18,431 bases of DNA, taken from positions 1 through 18,431 of the forward strand of contig JAGXNO010000058.1 in the NCBI GenBank assembly GCA_019894975.1. Direction: 5' to 3'. Under the pieces are notes generated by a model. The model saw only the letters and a list, made by a program, of their open reading frames with translations, did not search any database and was not told where the DNA came from. This stretch comes from Promethearchaeota archaeon (lineage in GTDB: Archaea > Asgardarchaeota > Lokiarchaeia > Sigyniarchaeales > SOKP01). Shown here piece by piece: positions 7,898 to 18,431 of this stretch. The first letter of the stretch is position 1. Each line of letters opens with the position of its first letter. The position numbers and the translations under genes are program-made.

Positions 7898-8503
7898 ATG
7901 AAGTTAATTGATTTTTTTAGAAGCAAAATTATTCTATTTATTATTCAGATTTTGATTCTAAGCTTATTTCTATTTTATTCTGGCTATCAATTTAGTATTA
8001 CATTTGATAGCACAGTCACTGTATCACAGAAAAGAATCATCCAATTCATAGCAAACTATGTTTTGTTTGATAATTTACCTGGGATGTTTTTTATCTATTT
8101 TATTTGGTTTATAACCTCATTAATTCCTATTTTTTTCCACAATAATCTTAAAAAAGCCTATTCTATGAACCTAATGACCTTCTTTTTTCCTAACTTCTTT
8201 GTATTCGCGTTTCTATATAACAATTCAAGAAACTATTTTGATTCAAATTTCTTACAGCATTTCTTACATTCATTATTACTGGGAATGCTAATTATAATGG
8301 TATCCATAGGGGTCTCTTTAATTTTAAAAAAAATAATGAAAGTAAAAACAGAAGAGCAAATAGAAAATCTAAATATTATAATTAACAAGATAAAATCAAA
8401 ATGCCCAAAATGTGGTACAGAATTTAATTCAACACCAATTTTTTGTTATAATTGTGAATCAAAAATAATACTAAAAGCTGAGGAAAATGTTGGAATCAAA
8501 TGA
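7898..8503 (+). CDS. Hypothetical membrane protein (about 4 TM) with C-terminal zinc ribbon
   Basis: Four Phe/Ile/Leu-rich segments followed by CPKC-x10-CYNC. Overlaps the next gene by 17 nt. Confidence 0.8.
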   Translation: MKLIDFFRSKIILFIIQILILSLFLFYSGYQFSITFDSTVTVSQKRIIQFIANYVLFDNLPGMFFIYFIWFITSLIPIFFHNNLKKAYSMNLMTFFFPNFFVFAFLYNNSRNYFDSNFLQHFLHSLLLGMLIIMVSIGVSLILKKIMKVKTEEQIENLNIIINKIKSKCPKCGTEFNSTPIFCYNCESKIILKAEENVGIK

Positions 8504-9953
8504 TAACATACACCCTTTAGAATTATTATTCAATCCAAAAAATGTAGTCATATTAAGAGTAGGTGGAGCAATTGAGCCTATGGTAAAAGGATTTAAACGA
8601 CAGGGATTTGACCTTGATAACTTATATTTAATATCTCCGAGAGAAGAGAGTTTCCTGGGGTTAAGATGCTATAAGTCATTAGAAGAAATTCCCATAGATC
8701 ATATAGACCTTTTAATATTATCCATTAGAAGAGATCTTCTAGTTGAAACTCTTCAGGAAGTTCTTTCAAAAAAGAAGGTGAATTTTATACACATATTCAC
8801 AGCAGGAACAGGTGAATTTGATCAAACTGGTAGTGAAATCGAACAAGAATTAAAACGTATTTTAGATAACTATAAAAATACAAGGAGTATCGGCCCGAAT
8901 TGTATGGGAATTTATAGTCCACGTGGAAATGCTGCTTATTATTCTTCATTTCCTGAAGAGCTTGGAAATATTGGCTTAATCTTCCAATCTGGTGATTTAC
9001 ATTCGAAAATTATCAAATTTGGATCTCGAAGATATCACCTTCGATTTTCAATTGGAGTTAGCATTGGGAATTGTGTTGATATTCAAATTTCTGAGGTATT
9101 ACACTATTTAAACGAAGATAAAGATACAGATGTAATTTGTGTCTACTTTGAAGGAATTTCACCAATTCATAAGAATGAGGGGAAAAGATTATTGGAAGTT
9201 TTGAAAAATATGAAAAAACCAGTATTATTTATGAGAGGAGGGAAAACTGAAAGAGGTCAAACTGCTGTGTTATCACACACAGGATCTATGGCGACCAATA
9301 AGAACATTTGGAAGGCAGTATATAGACAAACATCTTTAATTGAGATCCCTTCCTCATTGGATGAATTAATTGATATCGTATACTTATTTTCATCATATTT
9401 TAATCGTTTTAAGAAGCTTAAAAAAGAAGTTGAATTTCCTAGAAACAAGAGAACTCTAATTATATTATGGTCAGGAGGATTTGGAATTTTAGCAACAGAT
9501 ACAATGATAGAAATGGGACTTGAAGTTCCTCAATTCAAGGGTGAAACGTTAGAAAAGCTTACGAATATCTATCCGATCCGTGTAGGAAGTTTAGCTAATC
9601 CATTAGATCTACCTTTTGTAACATATCAAAAAGAACTTGTAGATGTGACTAAGGCCGCTGTAGATGAAGATATTAGCCTTGTAATAATAGAAACAGACGC
9701 TTGGAAAAACATAGAAGGTAAACGCTTTAAAGGTTATTATGAAAACCTATTAGAAATTAGGGATTATGTGGAAAACCAAAACAAAACGGTGATTATCATT
9801 TTACATCAATATCCAAGCGAATCTCGCAAGGTCTTTGTTGATATGCTACTTAAAGACAATTTTCTTGTTTATCCCTCTCTTGAAGCCGCAGCTAAATCAT
9901 ATTTAAAGCTTTACGAATATGGGAAGAAGATTGAAGGTTTTAAAAAGAAATAG
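8487..9953 (+). CDS. CoA-binding protein, NDP-forming acyl-CoA synthetase alpha-subunit-like (AcdA family)
   Basis: LFNPKNV, GPNCMG, QSG, SIGN, VYFEG, GKTERG..AVLSHTGS (phospho-His loop), SGG and NPLD. No ATP-grasp domain. Confidence 0.9.
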   Translation: MLESNDNIHPLELLFNPKNVVILRVGGAIEPMVKGFKRQGFDLDNLYLISPREESFLGLRCYKSLEEIPIDHIDLLILSIRRDLLVETLQEVLSKKKVNFIHIFTAGTGEFDQTGSEIEQELKRILDNYKNTRSIGPNCMGIYSPRGNAAYYSSFPEELGNIGLIFQSGDLHSKIIKFGSRRYHLRFSIGVSIGNCVDIQISEVLHYLNEDKDTDVICVYFEGISPIHKNEGKRLLEVLKNMKKPVLFMRGGKTERGQTAVLSHTGSMATNKNIWKAVYRQTSLIEIPSSLDELIDIVYLFSSYFNRFKKLKKEVEFPRNKRTLIILWSGGFGILATDTMIEMGLEVPQFKGETLEKLTNIYPIRVGSLANPLDLPFVTYQKELVDVTKAAVDEDISLVIIETDAWKNIEGKRFKGYYENLLEIRDYVENQNKTVIIILHQYPSESRKVFVDMLLKDNFLVYPSLEAAAKSYLKLYEYGKKIEGFKKK

Positions 9954-11021: not shown

Positions 11022-11630
11022 TTACTCAAGTTTATCGTAATCTAATTTATTCTTCTCTAAAATCTTAACAACTAAGTCTCTAAAAATTTTCTCTATATTA
11101 ACGTTATCTTTCGCTGAGGTCTTATAAAAATCACTCTCTGCATGTCGAGTCATGAATCTGTCGATTACTAATTTATCTACTCGAGTTTTATCATCAACGT
11201 TTTCAACAAGATCTTTTTTTGTGCCAATAAACATTCTAGGAGTAGTGCCATGATTATGTTCACCCAATCTTTCATACCACCAATCTAATCTTAATAGTGT
11301 TTGAAGATCTACTAAACTAAATACCATAAATATACCGTTAGCACCATTAATATAATAGGGGAATAATTTTTTAAACTGTTCCCGACCTCCAAAATCCCAA
11401 ATACTAATTCTAACGAAAGTATTGTCTCCACCTACAGTTATGGGTAGGTCGTATGTGTAGAACTCAATTCCAAGAGTTTGTGTAGTATCAACTTCAAATG
11501 TATTAAAACATAAACGCTTGGCAATACATGTCTTTCCTACGCGTTCTTGCCCCAATATTACGATTTTAAAAATATAAATAGGTTTATCTTCATTATTAAC
11601 CTTAAATATTGGTTTATCTTGTGCTGTCAT
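11022..11630 (-). CDS. Ras-superfamily (Rab-like) small GTPase
   Basis: G1 GQERVGKT, G2 TLGIEF, G3 WDFGGRE, YYINGA (RabF4-like), G4 TKKD and G5 TSAK. No C-terminal Cys prenylation motif. Confidence 0.95.
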   Translation of the reverse strand: MTAQDKPIFKVNNEDKPIYIFKIVILGQERVGKTCIAKRLCFNTFEVDTTQTLGIEFYTYDLPITVGGDNTFVRISIWDFGGREQFKKLFPYYINGANGIFMVFSLVDLQTLLRLDWWYERLGEHNHGTTPRMFIGTKKDLVENVDDKTRVDKLVIDRFMTRHAESDFYKTSAKDNVNIEKIFRDLVVKILEKNKLDYDKLE

Positions 11631-11762: not shown

Positions 11763-12821
11763 TTAAACTTCATGAGTTTTTAAACAAATTTTACCCTTCT
11801 TAAAAATTTCTGCATAGGATGGTTTCGTATGTTGCCATGAGCCATCATTTATGATCTGAATTGGATGTCCATTTACCGTTCCATTATACACTTCCTTATG
11901 ATGAGAATGCCCATATACTAGATGATTTATTTGTGATAAATCATGCTCTTCGTCCTCTAAGAATCTTTTTATCTCACCGAAATAATAATCAGGTTTACTG
12001 GCATGTTCCCATTTTTTCATTACGCGCATGTTTACCTTAATTAGATTAAATTCTAAGGTACTTAGTTCTGAAAAAAGGGTTTTTTGTGATTCGAGAGAAA
12101 CATTTTTTAAGTCAGCTAATTCTTCAATCATCATATTATAAGTAATAGGTTTAATTTTTCTGCTATTCTTGATTACTTCATTCCAAAAATAGTCATATGT
12201 CTCTTTTATTTCAAATTTGTGATTAGATATTAAGGATTTCCATATTTGTCCTACAAAAAAGCGATATACGTCACCATCAAATTGATATCCATGAGTCATG
12301 AAACATCGGTAATCTTCCTCTAATTCTAGTCCATCAATTCTAATCTTATGAACTGGATTATCCTCAATTTGATCTCGTGTGTTAAATAATAACAGCATAT
12401 CCTCATTATTCACCTTTTTTAATAGTAAATACTGACAGTAAATTTCATTAGCAAACAATTCACTGAAATCACTATTCTTAAACCTCCTCAAATATTTTTC
12501 TTTTCGACGCTCAAATTTCTCATCATAATCTCCCGTAACAGGAATTTCATGATTTCCAAGAACAAAAATAAGTTTTACTTTCCTTTTAATTTCCAGTAGG
12601 AGGGTTAAGATTTCTTGGATTTTCTCCCTTTTTAAAAGAATTCTAGGGAGATCCGTACATAAATCAATGAAATCTCCTAATATTAAAAGAGCTCTTAACT
12701 CATTTCCGAAATCTCCTTTGAGTATTCTTTTTAAAAACTGAATTAATTGATCTTTTTCACTATCCAAGGAACCTAAATGAATATCAGAAATTGTTAAGAT
12801 TTTTGGATTATTACCTTCCAT
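11763..12821 (-). CDS. Calcineurin-like metallophosphoesterase (LpxH/YbbF-like motif pattern)
   Basis: All five metal motifs: SDIHLG, LGDFID, GNHE, THG and GHSH, plus C-terminal NDGSW. Confidence 0.92.
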   Translation of the reverse strand: MEGNNPKILTISDIHLGSLDSEKDQLIQFLKRILKGDFGNELRALLILGDFIDLCTDLPRILLKREKIQEILTLLLEIKRKVKLIFVLGNHEIPVTGDYDEKFERRKEKYLRRFKNSDFSELFANEIYCQYLLLKKVNNEDMLLLFNTRDQIEDNPVHKIRIDGLELEEDYRCFMTHGYQFDGDVYRFFVGQIWKSLISNHKFEIKETYDYFWNEVIKNSRKIKPITYNMMIEELADLKNVSLESQKTLFSELSTLEFNLIKVNMRVMKKWEHASKPDYYFGEIKRFLEDEEHDLSQINHLVYGHSHHKEVYNGTVNGHPIQIINDGSWQHTKPSYAEIFKKGKICLKTHEV

Positions 12822-12940
12822 GTTTTAATGATCTCTTTATAAAATGTTGACTCAATTAAAATTAATTATACTAGATAATATAATTATTTTATCCATCACG
12901 AACTAGAAGAGATTATACTTATCTTTAACTTAAATATAAT

Positions 12941-13108
12941 TTAATAAAGAATTCTCGACTTTAACTTCCTCAAAAAATCACTATATTCTGTACATTCCTT
13001 ACAATCAGGAATCTTACATAAAAATTGTAATTTTGGAAGCTCAAATTTATCGAAAAAGGGACAAACCAACAATTCAAATCGAGGAATAAAAACTATATCA
13101 GATCCCAT
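12941..13108 (-). CDS. Small Cys-rich hypothetical protein, 55 aa (not in the ORF track)
   Basis: ATG at 13108 to TAA at 12941 gives MGSDIVFIPRFELLVCPFFDKFELPKLQFLCKIPDCKECTEYSDFLRKLKSRILY. Four Cys (C16, C31, C36, C39). TTTATAAA box 23-30 nt upstream of the ATG. Confidence 0.7.
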   Translation of the reverse strand: MGSDIVFIPRFELLVCPFFDKFELPKLQFLCKIPDCKECTEYSDFLRKLKSRILY

Positions 13109-13130
13109 TTAAAACACTATTTTAGGGGAG

Positions 13131-13138
13131 TTTATAAA
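13131..13138 (-). promoter_or_regulatory. TATA box for a probable leaderless transcript of the 55-aa ORF
   Basis: TTTATAAA at -23 to -30 from ATG 13108, the archaeal spacing for a start site at or near the ATG. Confidence 0.5.
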
Positions 13139-13340
13139 TATAAAAATATAGTTTGTATTTTTAAATCCTCTGAGAGCGAAAAATTTATAATAAAATTGAG
13201 TAAATCATTGAAAATAGAATTGTATGAAAGGTAAATTCAGAGTGTGATATTCATATAAACTTCTCTGAAAAACTTAGTTTTGTTAGAATTAGAAATGGTT
13301 ATATATTATATCAAATTAGAATTTTATCAACAGACTTAAA

Positions 13341-15131
13341 GTGAATTTTATGAACCCTACTGTACAATTCCATCACAAGAAAGAATATTGGTATATAAGT
13401 GCATTTTTAAACTCAATGGAAGTCAATGAGGAAGTTAGAGATCAAAAAATAAAGACTTTGCTAGATCTGATAAAAGGTAGATTAAGCAATCTTAAAGACT
13501 CTGAAAAAAAAGATTCTAAAAGTGTAGAAACTGAAGAGAAAAAATCTGACTTTGAATATTTGGAACGATTGCCTGATGTTGAAGAAAATAAAAGAATGTT
13601 AATTAAAATGGGTCAAATTATATCTATTGAATGTAAATGGGTACCTGTTTTTAGTGGTTTTTCTTTTACAGATGAAAAACGAGATTTTACTAGAGGTATT
13701 AAACCCGTACCTATAATTTATGACTCATTGGGATATTTTGAATTCAAAGTAGATTATAATAAGTTAGGGAGTGAAAAAGAATCTATAAAACCCCTTTTAA
13801 TACAGCAAATGCCGATAATAGCAAGAAAAGTAATAAAAGAATTCTGCAAAGAGGAAGATAATCAATTTATTTTGGTTGACTACGAAAGCAACATATTTGA
13901 CATAGTAATTACAAATAAATCTCATCCAAGTAAAATATCCTGGACTGAGGAAAAGATAAACGAGTACAAAAGAAGTCTTGGATATTGGACAGAGATATAT
14001 TCTGGTAGTTGGGAAGATTATTCGGTTGAGCTTTTTAATGACAGAGTAGCTCACAATTTATCAAATCGTACTTCAGAATTGCATTATCTTTCTAGAAATT
14101 CAGGATTTATTTACATGGAGGAAGAAAATTATGATAAACATTTTGATAGATATATGGTAGGGAGTGTCCTAGAACCCGCAGCAGAAATTAGAGCCATACA
14201 GTATGCACTAATGTCAATTAATGAATCCCTTGATGTGCTATTTAAAAAACGGGTTGGGATTTTTATGAGTTTAGGAAGATTAGAAGAAAAAATCAAACAG
14301 CTTAGGCTTTTAAAAGGAAATATTCAAACAAATTTAAGTGTAATTTATAAAGAATTAGATTGGAATAGACGTCAGCATTATACTAAAGTAATGAGTCATC
14401 TAATAGAGGAATTCAGGTTAAAAGATATTTTTAAAAGAGTCGATTCTAAATTCGTTCTAATAGAAGATTCGCTGAAAGAATTATACGTGAAAGGAAAGGA
14501 AAGACGCAGTGAGATGAGAGAAAAGACATTAACGCTTTTAGGTACTCTTTTTAGTTTAGGAGTTCTTGCAGATATCACATTGTTATTTATAAATAATGCA
14601 TTTGATTTAGCAGAGGAACATTTGTTAACAAGGCTTTTGTATTTTATTACGTTTTTTGTCATCGTTTTATTATTCGGTATTTCTTTATTAAGGTTTTGGG
14701 GAAAAGCAAGAAATTTAAAGCAAACAGAAAGGGGTGAAGCTGTTGATGCTTTAATCGAGGATGGGAAGGGTAATGTTGTAGTAATTGAACGTATGTTTCC
14801 CCCATATCAGGGAATGTATGCCCTTCCTGGAGGATTTATAGAGAGGGAGAGAGGAGAGAAACCAAAAGATGCTGTGATACGTGAAGTTAGAGAAGAAACA
14901 AATTTAGAGATAGAAATTGAGAGAAAAGTCGGAGAGTATGATAAAAAAGGGAGAGATCCTAGAGATGACATAAAATCAACCGTTTTTAAATGCAGGTGCG
15001 AAGATTTCTCTAAACTAAATAAGGGTGAAGATACTCAACGCGTTAAATTAATTTCATTAAGAGAACTGAAGACAAAGGAAATAGCATTTGATCATAGACA
15101 AATGTTGAAAGATGCGGGATATGATGTTTGA
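13341..15131 (+). CDS. Membrane protein: large N-terminal soluble domain + helical stalk + 2 TM + C-terminal Nudix hydrolase domain
   Basis: TM1 at about aa 397-417 and TM2 at about aa 432-453. Nudix domain at about aa 467-596 (AVDALI, YALPGGF, REVREETNL, GRDPR, IAFDH). Start is GTG 13341 or ATG 13350. Confidence 0.9.
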   Translation: MNFMNPTVQFHHKKEYWYISAFLNSMEVNEEVRDQKIKTLLDLIKGRLSNLKDSEKKDSKSVETEEKKSDFEYLERLPDVEENKRMLIKMGQIISIECKWVPVFSGFSFTDEKRDFTRGIKPVPIIYDSLGYFEFKVDYNKLGSEKESIKPLLIQQMPIIARKVIKEFCKEEDNQFILVDYESNIFDIVITNKSHPSKISWTEEKINEYKRSLGYWTEIYSGSWEDYSVELFNDRVAHNLSNRTSELHYLSRNSGFIYMEEENYDKHFDRYMVGSVLEPAAEIRAIQYALMSINESLDVLFKKRVGIFMSLGRLEEKIKQLRLLKGNIQTNLSVIYKELDWNRRQHYTKVMSHLIEEFRLKDIFKRVDSKFVLIEDSLKELYVKGKERRSEMREKTLTLLGTLFSLGVLADITLLFINNAFDLAEEHLLTRLLYFITFFVIVLLFGISLLRFWGKARNLKQTERGEAVDALIEDGKGNVVVIERMFPPYQGMYALPGGFIERERGEKPKDAVIREVREETNLEIEIERKVGEYDKKGRDPRDDIKSTVFKCRCEDFSKLNKGEDTQRVKLISLRELKTKEIAFDHRQMLKDAGYDV

Positions 15132-17816: not shown

Positions 17817-18431
17817 TTGACTAGAGAAAATATACCGTTTGAACGACTTTTTAATCCACGTGCGATAGTTATAATTGGTGTTTCAAAATTAAATCCAATG
17901 GGAGCAACTCAATATGTTTTTGCATTGAAATCTGCTCAATTTCCGAATCCAATATACCTTGTAAACCCAAAATATACAGGTGAGGAATTAATGGGATATA
18001 AGTTTTATAATTCTGTTTCTTCAATACCAAACGATCCACCTGTTGATCTTGCGATAGTAGCCGTACCCGCTCACTTAACCCCTTCAATTATTGAAGAAAG
18101 TGGGAAAAAGGGAATTTCTTTCGCACACATATTTAGTAGCGGATTTTCTGAATTAGACTCTGAATTTGATAAGAAAGGAAAAAGACTTGAAGAGGAGCTA
18201 ATCAGTGTTGCTTCAAAATGCGGAATACGTATCCTCGGTCCAAATTGTATGGGCATATTCGCACCAAAATCAAAACTCACCTTTTTAATGCCAATGAGGG
18301 AAATGCAGAGGGCAACTAGCAATAGTAATGAAAAAGATTCAGAATATTTTGAAGGTTTAGAAGATATCGGGGATATGAAAAATAGTGGGCAAATTGCTTT
18401 TATATCACAGAGTGGGGGGATTGCTTTCACT
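17817..18431 (+). CDS. Second CoA-binding / acyl-CoA synthetase alpha-like protein (runs off the window; not in the ORF track)
   Basis: Manual translation: ..FERLFNPRAIVIIGVSK..IYLVNPKY..PVDLAIVAVPA..AHIFSSGFSE..IRILGPNCMGIFAP..GQIAFISQSGG. The first canonical start is TTG 17817; an in-frame ATA at 17796 is an alternative. Confidence 0.92.
   Translation, partial: MTRENIPFERLFNPRAIVIIGVSKLNPMGATQYVFALKSAQFPNPIYLVNPKYTGEELMGYKFYNSVSSIPNDPPVDLAIVAVPAHLTPSIIEESGKKGISFAHIFSSGFSELDSEFDKKGKRLEEELISVASKCGIRILGPNCMGIFAPKSKLTFLMPMREMQRATSNSNEKDSEYFEGLEDIGDMKNSGQIAFISQSGGIAFT

Follow-up and report, generated by a model that had tools for sequence, protein, structure and literature searches.

We analysed an 18,431-nucleotide stretch of the genome of a Promethearchaeota archaeon (contig JAGXNO010000058.1, hereafter the window), in which one gene encodes a soluble N-terminal domain (N-domain), two transmembrane (TM) helices and a Nudix domain in one polypeptide. 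The gene lies in a single open frame at 13341-15131 on the forward strand, as are all of its features given below, and encodes 596 amino acids (aa) when counted from a GTG at 13341 (open reading frame (ORF) listing and translation). The true start is probably the ATG at 13350, since homologues begin at this position in the alignment, and the gene would then span 13350-15131 (ORF listing, translation and homologue alignment) and encode 593 aa. Residue numbering throughout counts from the GTG at 13341.

The cytoplasmic N-domain occupies aa 1-395 (13341-14525), an alpha/beta sandwich with three long helices after it (the last taken as aa 345-395), and has a predicted CorA-like fold, as judged from an AlphaFold2 (AF2) model and its Foldseek and VIA-align matches. 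Near its beginning, a low-complexity insertion rich in Lys, Glu and Ser (aa 49-73, 13485-13559) is mostly missing from the other aligned members of the family and is modelled with a predicted local distance difference test score (pLDDT) of about 69 over residues 51-70. The block at aa 201-260 (13941-14120) is the most conserved of the family by conservation scores, and a conserved ELDxNRRQHY turn at aa 338-347 (14352-14381), seen in the alignment, the AF2 model and the conservation scores, leads from the second long helix to the stalk. A basic patch, KGKERRSEMREK (aa 384-395, 14490-14525), marks the cytoplasmic entry of TM1. Exactly two TM segments were found by hydropathy, at about aa 396-420 (TM1, 14526-14600), which is continuous with the stalk helix in the AF2 model, and at aa 432-456 (TM2, 14634-14708). 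They are joined by a short acidic extracellular loop of 11 residues (14601-14633) that contains DLAEEH (aa 422-427). The cytoplasmic Nudix domain follows at aa 465-591 (14733-15113), as located by Pfam, PDB sequence match and Foldseek. Within it lie the Nudix box GFIERERGEKPKDAVIREVREETNL (14832-14906, by motif scan), an RDPR motif at aa 538-541 (14952-14963) and an AFDH motif at aa 582-585 (15084-15095), the last two placed by PDB alignments and family motif counts. The basic patch and the loop were read from the translation, and both, like the Nudix box, were verified by string check.

A Pfam scan of the protein returned NUDIX at aa 465-591 (E 9.6e-17, 131 of 134 profile positions) and no other family, including CorA PF01544 and DUF155/RMD1, at E up to 1. 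Basic residues lie next to the cytoplasmic ends of both TM helices and the short connecting loop is acidic; by the positive-inside rule, the N-domain and the Nudix domain are therefore both cytoplasmic. The initial annotation, made by a model from the sequence alone, had described this same order of soluble domain, basic patch, two TM helices, acidic loop and Nudix domain. Every string that it quoted is present, and its placement of both large domains on one side of the membrane agrees with the two TM segments and the positive-inside rule.

Nudix domain and conservation of the fusion

The Nudix fold was recovered by Foldseek with the Aquifex aeolicus protein 2yyh (TM-score 0.82 by target, root mean square deviation (rmsd) 1.9), which was also the best PDB match of the domain by sequence (E 1.7e-18, 35-36% identity). 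Further PDB relatives were 3i9x, the NrtR protein EF2700 (2fml), the NadM-Nudix protein 2qjo and the Shewanella NrtR with ADP-ribose (3gz8). In the PDB alignments, RDPR is common to 2yyh, 3i9x and 2fml, and an FDH-type C-terminal motif occurs in 2yyh and 3i9x, both uncharacterised, and in a weakly aligned stretch of 2fml. The fused Nudix domain thus has the RDPR, GxDA and FDH motifs in common with 2yyh; unlike the fused protein, 2yyh is a stand-alone soluble protein of 139 aa, and its label '8-oxo-dGTPase domain' does not fix the substrate. Among the NCBIfam models, NadM-Nudix ranked first (2.1e-10), followed by NrtR (1.7e-9) and then MutT (5e-5). The initial annotation had taken RDPR and AFDH as typical of NrtR/NadM-type Nudix proteins; both motifs are present, and the nearest characterised relatives by NCBIfam and PDB matches are indeed NadM-Nudix and NrtR.

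These results suggest a Nudix domain of the NadM/NrtR, ADP-ribose-binding type. The canonical Nudix box is GX5EX7REUXEEXGU, and that of the window copy reads GX7EX7REVREETNL. The domain described initially as complete is so in its extent and in its REx2EE core (REVREE), but not in the letter of the box, which has GX7E and a terminal N. The N replaces the last G of the box and is also found in most of the family members with a full box. The domain is predicted to be catalytically competent. NrtR proteins bind ADP-ribose through their Nudix domain and have genomic links to genes of nicotinamide adenine dinucleotide (NAD) metabolism (PMC2330246), and ADP-ribose or a close derivative is our best guess at the ligand. 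The family resembles NrtR and NadM-Nudix, its closest characterised Nudix relatives by sequence and structure, in joining a Nudix sensor or enzyme to an output module and in its linkage to an NAD gene, here nadA. The partner, however, is a membrane protein and not a winged-helix DNA-binding domain or a nicotinamide mononucleotide adenylyltransferase, and the Nudix box is intact in most fused members whereas it is degenerate in most NrtRs. Three fused members (P0037, P0039 and P0048) lack a literal REx2EE and may be binding-only variants, as in most NrtRs.

An exhaustive HMMER search with aa 1-462 against 1.84 billion representatives returned only 75 clusters at 50% identity. A Nudix domain was present in 15 of the 40 near-full-length representatives at this identity, and the others, of 400-440 aa, end a few residues past TM2. 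Because many representatives end there, the N-domain with its two TM helices stands as an independent module, and the Nudix fusions form a sub-group of it. In a locus scan limited to one genome per species, 80 loci were recovered, nearly all of them from Promethearchaeota (including genomes labelled Hermod-, Hel- and Hodarchaeota), together with one Myxococcota clade. All 78 full-length members from these loci carry the Nudix domain, with the full box in 72, RDPR in 75 and [AS]FDH in all 78. Since the fusion is kept throughout with its motifs conserved, it is old, under selection and no assembly artefact, and a concern of the initial annotation, that it might be private to this assembly, is removed. 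The alternative that the Nudix part is usually encoded by its own gene next door was likewise rejected, as the stand-alone genes for the N-domain and two TM helices have no Nudix neighbour.

Distribution within the phylum is patchy. The phylum survey used the N-domain alone as query; an alignment containing the Nudix domain matched stand-alone Nudix genes everywhere. The survey recovered a member from 25 of the 151 genomes sampled and, within the window's own family, from 16 of 25; some complete genomes of sister genera yielded none. The protein family is unannotated, and the only labels that its members have at present are 'NUDIX hydrolase' or '8-oxo-dGTP diphosphatase'. In a quick midpoint-rooted tree, the Myxococcota loci (L084, L090, L091 and L003) group with a long-branch Asgard member (L041), a join that may be false; the grouping may reflect inter-domain transfer. 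The Myxococcota fused proteins have the Nudix core REx2DE and a TM1 motif, LGTLFSLGVLAD, that is almost identical to that of the window copy.

Predicted CorA-like fold of the membrane module

Foldseek matches to the full-length AF2 model (pLDDT 78) were taken up by Nudix proteins, and aa 1-462 were therefore modelled alone. The resulting model, built from a 59-sequence alignment, had a pLDDT of 91.7 and a predicted TM-score (pTM) of 0.85. It places an alpha/beta sandwich at aa 9-259, with strands at 9-23, 95-109, 127-138, 186-195 and 246-259 and helices between them. Long helices follow at 261-306, 311-341 and 345-357, then a 64-residue helix at 360-423 that forms the stalk and TM1, and finally TM2 at 428-461. 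In a Foldseek search of the PDB with this model, the top match was a CorA chain (8tme_A, E 1.5e-3, probability 1.0), and CorA chains made up most of the top 50.

A comparison by VIA-align, run independently of Foldseek against 48,161 representatives, matched the soluble domain of Campylobacter jejuni CorA (8zah_A, Z 11.4, 170 residues over model positions 10-386, rmsd 9.2), the sole top row that covers both the alpha/beta domain and the helices, and CtMrs2 (8q8q, Z 9.1, 185 residues aligned, rmsd 7.3), among many meaningless helical-bundle matches that the tool also returns. A second VIA-align comparison yielded 8zak_A (Z 12.2, 111 residues, rmsd 2.3), CmaX (Z 9.4), the CorA of Methanocaldococcus jannaschii (Z 9.1), ZntB (Z 9.1), full-length Thermotoga maritima CorA (Z 7.5-8.8, up to 247 residues over model positions 25-456) and human MRS2 (Z 8.2, 236 residues). 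Because every branch of the CorA superfamily was recovered, and in the right topological order, we accept that the N-domain, stalk and TM pair probably have a CorA-like architecture, at the level of the predicted fold only. The layout of CorA, Mrs2 and ZntB that the initial annotation had proposed therefore finds agreement in the AF2 model and in both structural searches, with CorA itself as the best Foldseek match.

The likeness to the MIT superfamily (CorA, Mrs2, ZntB and CmaX; PF01544) lies in the predicted order of alpha/beta domain, long helices, continuous stalk and TM1, short outer loop and TM2, in the cytoplasmic location of both termini, in a TM1 that is better conserved than TM2, and in structural matches that span nearly the whole model. 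In contrast, the fused family has neither the GMN nor the MPEL motif and no detectable sequence or profile similarity to CorA, and it adds a Nudix domain of about 140 aa after TM2 as well as its own polar N-domain signature (NLSNRxSELH and others). The GMN motif is required for Mg2+ selectivity, and Asgard CorA proteins of the same phylum all have YGMNF..MPE. The absence of GMN and of CorA profile similarity, together with the co-existence of canonical CorA in sister genomes, upholds the initial annotation's statement that this is not an ordinary Mg2+ channel. Replacement of CorA by the fused family was considered and rejected, since sister genomes from the same genus and family encode canonical CorA; the fused family is thus an addition to CorA. 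The window's own genome, a 95%-complete assembly, gave no PF01544 match, although one was found in each of the other sampled genomes of the genus (two) and of the family (four); the missing gene is probably an assembly gap.

Conservation within the module is uneven. It reaches 0.65 at aa 201-260, compared with 0.41 at aa 9-200. The conserved positions in this block are W201, W216, Y220-S-G222, D226-Y227, R235, NLSNRxSELH at 239-248 and S254, and E246 is invariant in 59 of 59 diverse members. The block is probably a ligand-binding, metal-binding or inter-subunit site, to judge from the alignment. From the helix directions in the model, the ELDxNRRQHY turn would lie at that end of the bundle which points away from the membrane, beside the alpha/beta domain, which is presumably where CorA has regulatory metal sites between subunits. 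Of the TM helices, TM1 is the better conserved (0.45 vs 0.33 for TM2). Its conservation follows a one-sided face, N401-G405-G407-D/E411, which members that lack a Nudix domain retain as well, and the outer loop of family members usually holds a Glu. In CorA, TM1 is the pore helix. A mere anchor would need no such face. NLSNRxSELH, ELDxNRRQHY and LNxLFGxGxLAD constitute the sequence signature of the family.

The structural matches to CorA, ZntB and CmaX and the acidic residues in TM1 and the loop would also suit a transporter of divalent cations (Mg2+, Mn2+, Co2+ or Zn2+) from the wider CorA fold class, in which the Nudix domain is an unrelated add-on such as a MutT-like sanitiser. One homologue adjoins split MgtE genes, and the JGI label ('8-oxo-dGTP diphosphatase') and the structural-genomics label both point to an 8-oxo-dGTPase. 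We consider this explanation very unlikely. Canonical CorA and MgtE are present in the lineage, GMN is absent, MutT models score below the NadM and NrtR models, and retention of the fusion across Asgard archaea and Myxococcota argues for a coupled function.

The ESM Atlas contains the same predicted shape elsewhere: it is adopted by PF27233 (MJ0711_N) proteins, by large Bacteroidota clusters (unnamed, 516-587 aa) and by a cluster of Bacillota proteins, 76% of which carry a GGACT domain. This distribution of predicted structures suggests a wider, unstudied scaffold that takes different enzymatic domains.

Links to nadA and TIR genes and a possible nucleotide-controlled channel

A second copy of the fused gene is encoded in the window's own genome on contig C55 (L008:7358-9085, forward strand). 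Its product of 575 aa is 46% identical to the window protein, is less divergent and has a canonical Nudix box. The gene nadA lies 133 bp downstream on the same strand, a TIR-domain membrane protein is encoded divergently upstream, and Roadblock, ThiF and hexapeptide-repeat genes lie further upstream. Across the 80 loci, nadA is divergent from the fused gene (head-to-head, at 89-205 bp) in 30 and within 5 kb in seven more, 37 in all. The clade of the C55 copy has nadA downstream on the same strand, whereas the other clade has it head-to-head; because the orientation differs between the clades, the adjacency has outlived rearrangement. Among 103 neighbouring genes tallied by Pfam at the loci that lack nadA, no NAD gene recurred and TIR_2 occurred three times.

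The nadA linkage is compatible with another explanation, in which the protein is a membrane-tethered housekeeping pyrophosphatase whose Nudix domain clears ADP-ribose or another NAD by-product close to the membrane during NAD recycling, while the N-domain and TM helices anchor, oligomerise or regulate the enzyme and no ions pass. In its favour, 72 of the 78 members keep the catalytic residues, nearly half of the loci have nadA beside or near the fused gene, the surroundings are housekeeping-like and free of defence islands, and neither GMN nor a CorA sequence signal is present. Other evidence fits this explanation poorly. The N-domain with its two TM helices is widespread without a Nudix domain or a Nudix neighbour, and the membrane module must therefore have a function of its own. 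The small and polar face of TM1 with its acidic residue would be superfluous in a plain anchor, and the extracellular loop is too short for sensing, so that the membrane part is likely the output. On balance, a tethered pyrophosphatase appears fairly unlikely.

The TIR neighbours provide a second link to NAD, as TIR domains use up NAD+ and produce signals of the ADP-ribose type. Only two TIR_2 genes are encoded in the window's genome, one of which is that beside the C55 copy (L008:5955-6989, reverse strand). It encodes a receptor-like protein of 344 aa with two extracellular repeats, a single TM helix and, on the cytoplasmic side, a TIR domain that keeps the Glu of the C-x-K-E-L motif, a residue that we take to be catalytic as in other TIR NADases. 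Homologous TIR genes with differing sensor parts flank family members at L014, L021 and L057; the product at L014 (6059-7615, reverse strand) has a beta-propeller, and that at L057 (9881-11872, reverse strand) has an unassigned N-terminal region. In addition, a TIR-NPHP3_N(NACHT-like)-WD40 protein of 1259 aa (L009:2768-6547, reverse strand) is encoded convergently, 268 bp from the closest relative of the window protein (59% identity). The nadA and TIR neighbours of its relatives offer new, gene-order support for a link of the family to NAD or ADP-ribose.

These TIR genes raise the possibility that the fused protein acts as the effector in a TIR-based pathway of immunity or stress, similar to Thoeris, in which a TIR-made signal opens a pore, the membrane potential collapses and the Nudix domain acts as the off-switch. 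The membrane TIR protein with its retained Glu beside the C55 copy, the exchange of sensor domains at L014, L021 and L057, and the TIR-NACHT-WD40 gene beside the closest relative would all suit such a pathway. Precedents exist in Thoeris effectors with TM helices (bioRxiv 10.64898/2025.12.03.692087) and in CRISPR CorA-NrN fusions. The pairing with a TIR gene is, however, absent from the window; it is present for the C55 copy, for L014, L021 and L057 and for the locus of P0003, five places of which four belong to one clade. Most members lie in a stable syntenic block with nadA, ThiF and Roadblock rather than in variable islands, and PADLOC matched just the Nudix part, to the candidate defence model PDC-S07. 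That the fused protein is the effector of a TIR pathway is improbable.

The reading that we lean towards, tentatively and short of calling it probable, is a CorA-fold channel that is controlled by, and degrades, ADP-ribose or a related NAD+ derivative. What the analysis shows is the domain layout, the topology, the predicted fold, the conserved fusion with its catalytic residues, and the association of the family with nadA and TIR genes. From these we infer an oligomer, a pore, a ligand and their coupling, as follows. The protein would assemble as a CorA-like ring in which TM1, with its conserved face of small and polar residues ending in an acidic residue, lines a cation-conducting pore. Opening would be set by the cytoplasmic parts, namely the polar cluster of aa 201-260 and 338-347 and the Nudix domains tethered behind TM2, which would respond to ADP-ribose or a related NAD+-derived nucleotide. 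Hydrolysis of that nucleotide by the Nudix domain would then end the signal. A four-copy complex prediction with aa 262-462 scored 0.00, which speaks neither for nor against assembly.

Two known systems have a comparable logic. TRPM2 is an ADP-ribose-gated cation channel with a C-terminal NUDT9-homology Nudix domain, a 'channel-enzyme'. By analogy only, the fused protein would likewise be a channel-like membrane protein that carries, at its cytoplasmic C-terminus, a Nudix fold of the ADP-ribose class; its membrane part is unrelated, with two TM helices in a predicted CorA-like fold and not the six-TM tetrameric TRP architecture, and its hosts are prokaryotes. CorA effectors associated with type III CRISPR systems occur with NrN, DEDD or SAM-lyase partners (PMC10600005). 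These too are divergent CorA-like membrane proteins with a unique cytoplasmic domain, which in CRISPR CorA binds a nucleotide signal and in the fused family would do so by analogy; the fusion of some of them to an enzyme that degrades their own ligand would follow the same logic. The fused family differs in having no cas10 or other CRISPR genes nearby, in its C-terminal Nudix pyrophosphatase in place of a DHH or DEDD phosphodiesterase, and in its likely ligand class (ADP-ribose-like rather than SAM-AMP); the two are likened by design.

Several observations weigh against a nucleotide-controlled channel. TM-scores against full-length CorA were low (0.25-0.33), the Foldseek E-values were weak, and according to the tool notes of VIA-align, Z-scores of 8-12 are possible for long-helix proteins from arrangement alone. 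No sequence link to CorA was found: PF01544 was unmatched even at E 1, and hhalign gave a probability of 2% for the family profile against a profile of nine Asgard CorA proteins. GMN is absent, TM1 ending in FINNAF, and MPEL is likewise absent. The window copy departs from the conserved TM1 face at two sites (G for N401 and S for G405) and has a two-residue insertion before the first Glu of its Nudix box (GX7E vs canonical GX5E). The NadM-Nudix and NrtR matches reached 37-40 bits against cut-offs of about 400 bits, which are set for two-domain proteins, and every NCBIfam Nudix match lies far below its curated cut-off, making the substrate a guess. nadA lies within a longer synteny block with the hexapeptide-repeat, ThiF and Roadblock genes, and its adjacency could be in part inherited gene order among related genomes. 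The window copy has no nadA or TIR neighbours, and the metallophosphoesterase, Ras-like GTPase and aldo-keto reductase genes of the window were rejected as conserved partners, not being found beside its closest relative.

If a nucleotide-controlled channel were confirmed, it would represent a new class of CorA-fold channels regulated by nucleotide instead of Mg2+; to our knowledge, the CRISPR SAM-AMP effectors are the only other nucleotide-regulated example of the fold. It would also be the first case in prokaryotes of a channel fused to a Nudix domain of the ADP-ribose type and a simple two-TM system in which ligand hydrolysis times a channel, and its nadA and TIR links would tie the supply of NAD+ and the signals derived from it to ion flow across the membrane in Asgard archaea, with a bearing on the origin of eukaryote-like TIR/NAD+ signalling. 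A bolder form, which we regard as unlikely, holds that neighbouring membrane TIR receptors make an ADP-ribose-type messenger from NAD+ that opens a CorA-fold pore reset by its own Nudix domain, in Asgard archaea and, by transfer, in some Myxococcota. If true, NAD+ signalling in prokaryotes would lead to ion flux, with the logic of TRPM2 built from other parts in the lineage closest to eukaryotes. On the most modest reading, the analysis defines an unannotated family, recognisable by a sharp sequence signature, that comprises about 75 clusters at 50% identity. Its parts are each of a known kind and its design logic has precedents; the architecture itself is undescribed in the literature found by searches on MJ0711, on CorA-like proteins with Nudix and TIR domains, and on Asgard transmembrane Nudix proteins and ADP-ribose.

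Neighbourhood of the window copy

Genes in the window encode the RNA polymerase subunits A' and A'' (split), a NusA-like KH protein, L7Ae/L30e, S12, S7 and an M28 peptidase, as well as ACD-type CoA-ligase subunits, an EamA transporter, an aldo-keto reductase, a ferredoxin and a DinB-like protein. The CoA-binding or succinyl-CoA-ligase-like genes, parts of an ACD-type acyl-CoA synthetase, are annotated at 8487-9953 and 17817-18431 on the forward strand. Divergent from the fused gene across a 519-bp AT-rich spacer (12822-13340) are two genes annotated on the reverse strand, for a Ras/Roc-family small GTPase of 202 aa (11022-11630) and a calcineurin-like metallophosphoesterase of 352 aa (11763-12821), the latter having no PDB sequence match. 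The split RNA polymerase genes and the Ras-family GTPase gene, as well as the records of the homologues (Promethearchaeota, Hermod-, Hel- and Hodarchaeota), support an Asgard origin of the window. Neither CRISPR nor TIR nor other defence genes are among the window ORFs, no cas10 or type III CRISPR genes were seen in the window ORFs or in the homologue loci inspected, and an Rfam scan of the window returned nothing.

In the tree, the window copy stands on a long branch of 1.28 substitutions per site. It is a divergent duplicate of the nadA- and TIR-linked C55 copy, and its role may be modified.

On a Helarchaeota contig, at L001:4370-5535 (reverse strand), a homologue and two adjacent half-size MgtE genes are divergent from each other, and a split MgtE pair is also found on contig C135 of the window's genome.

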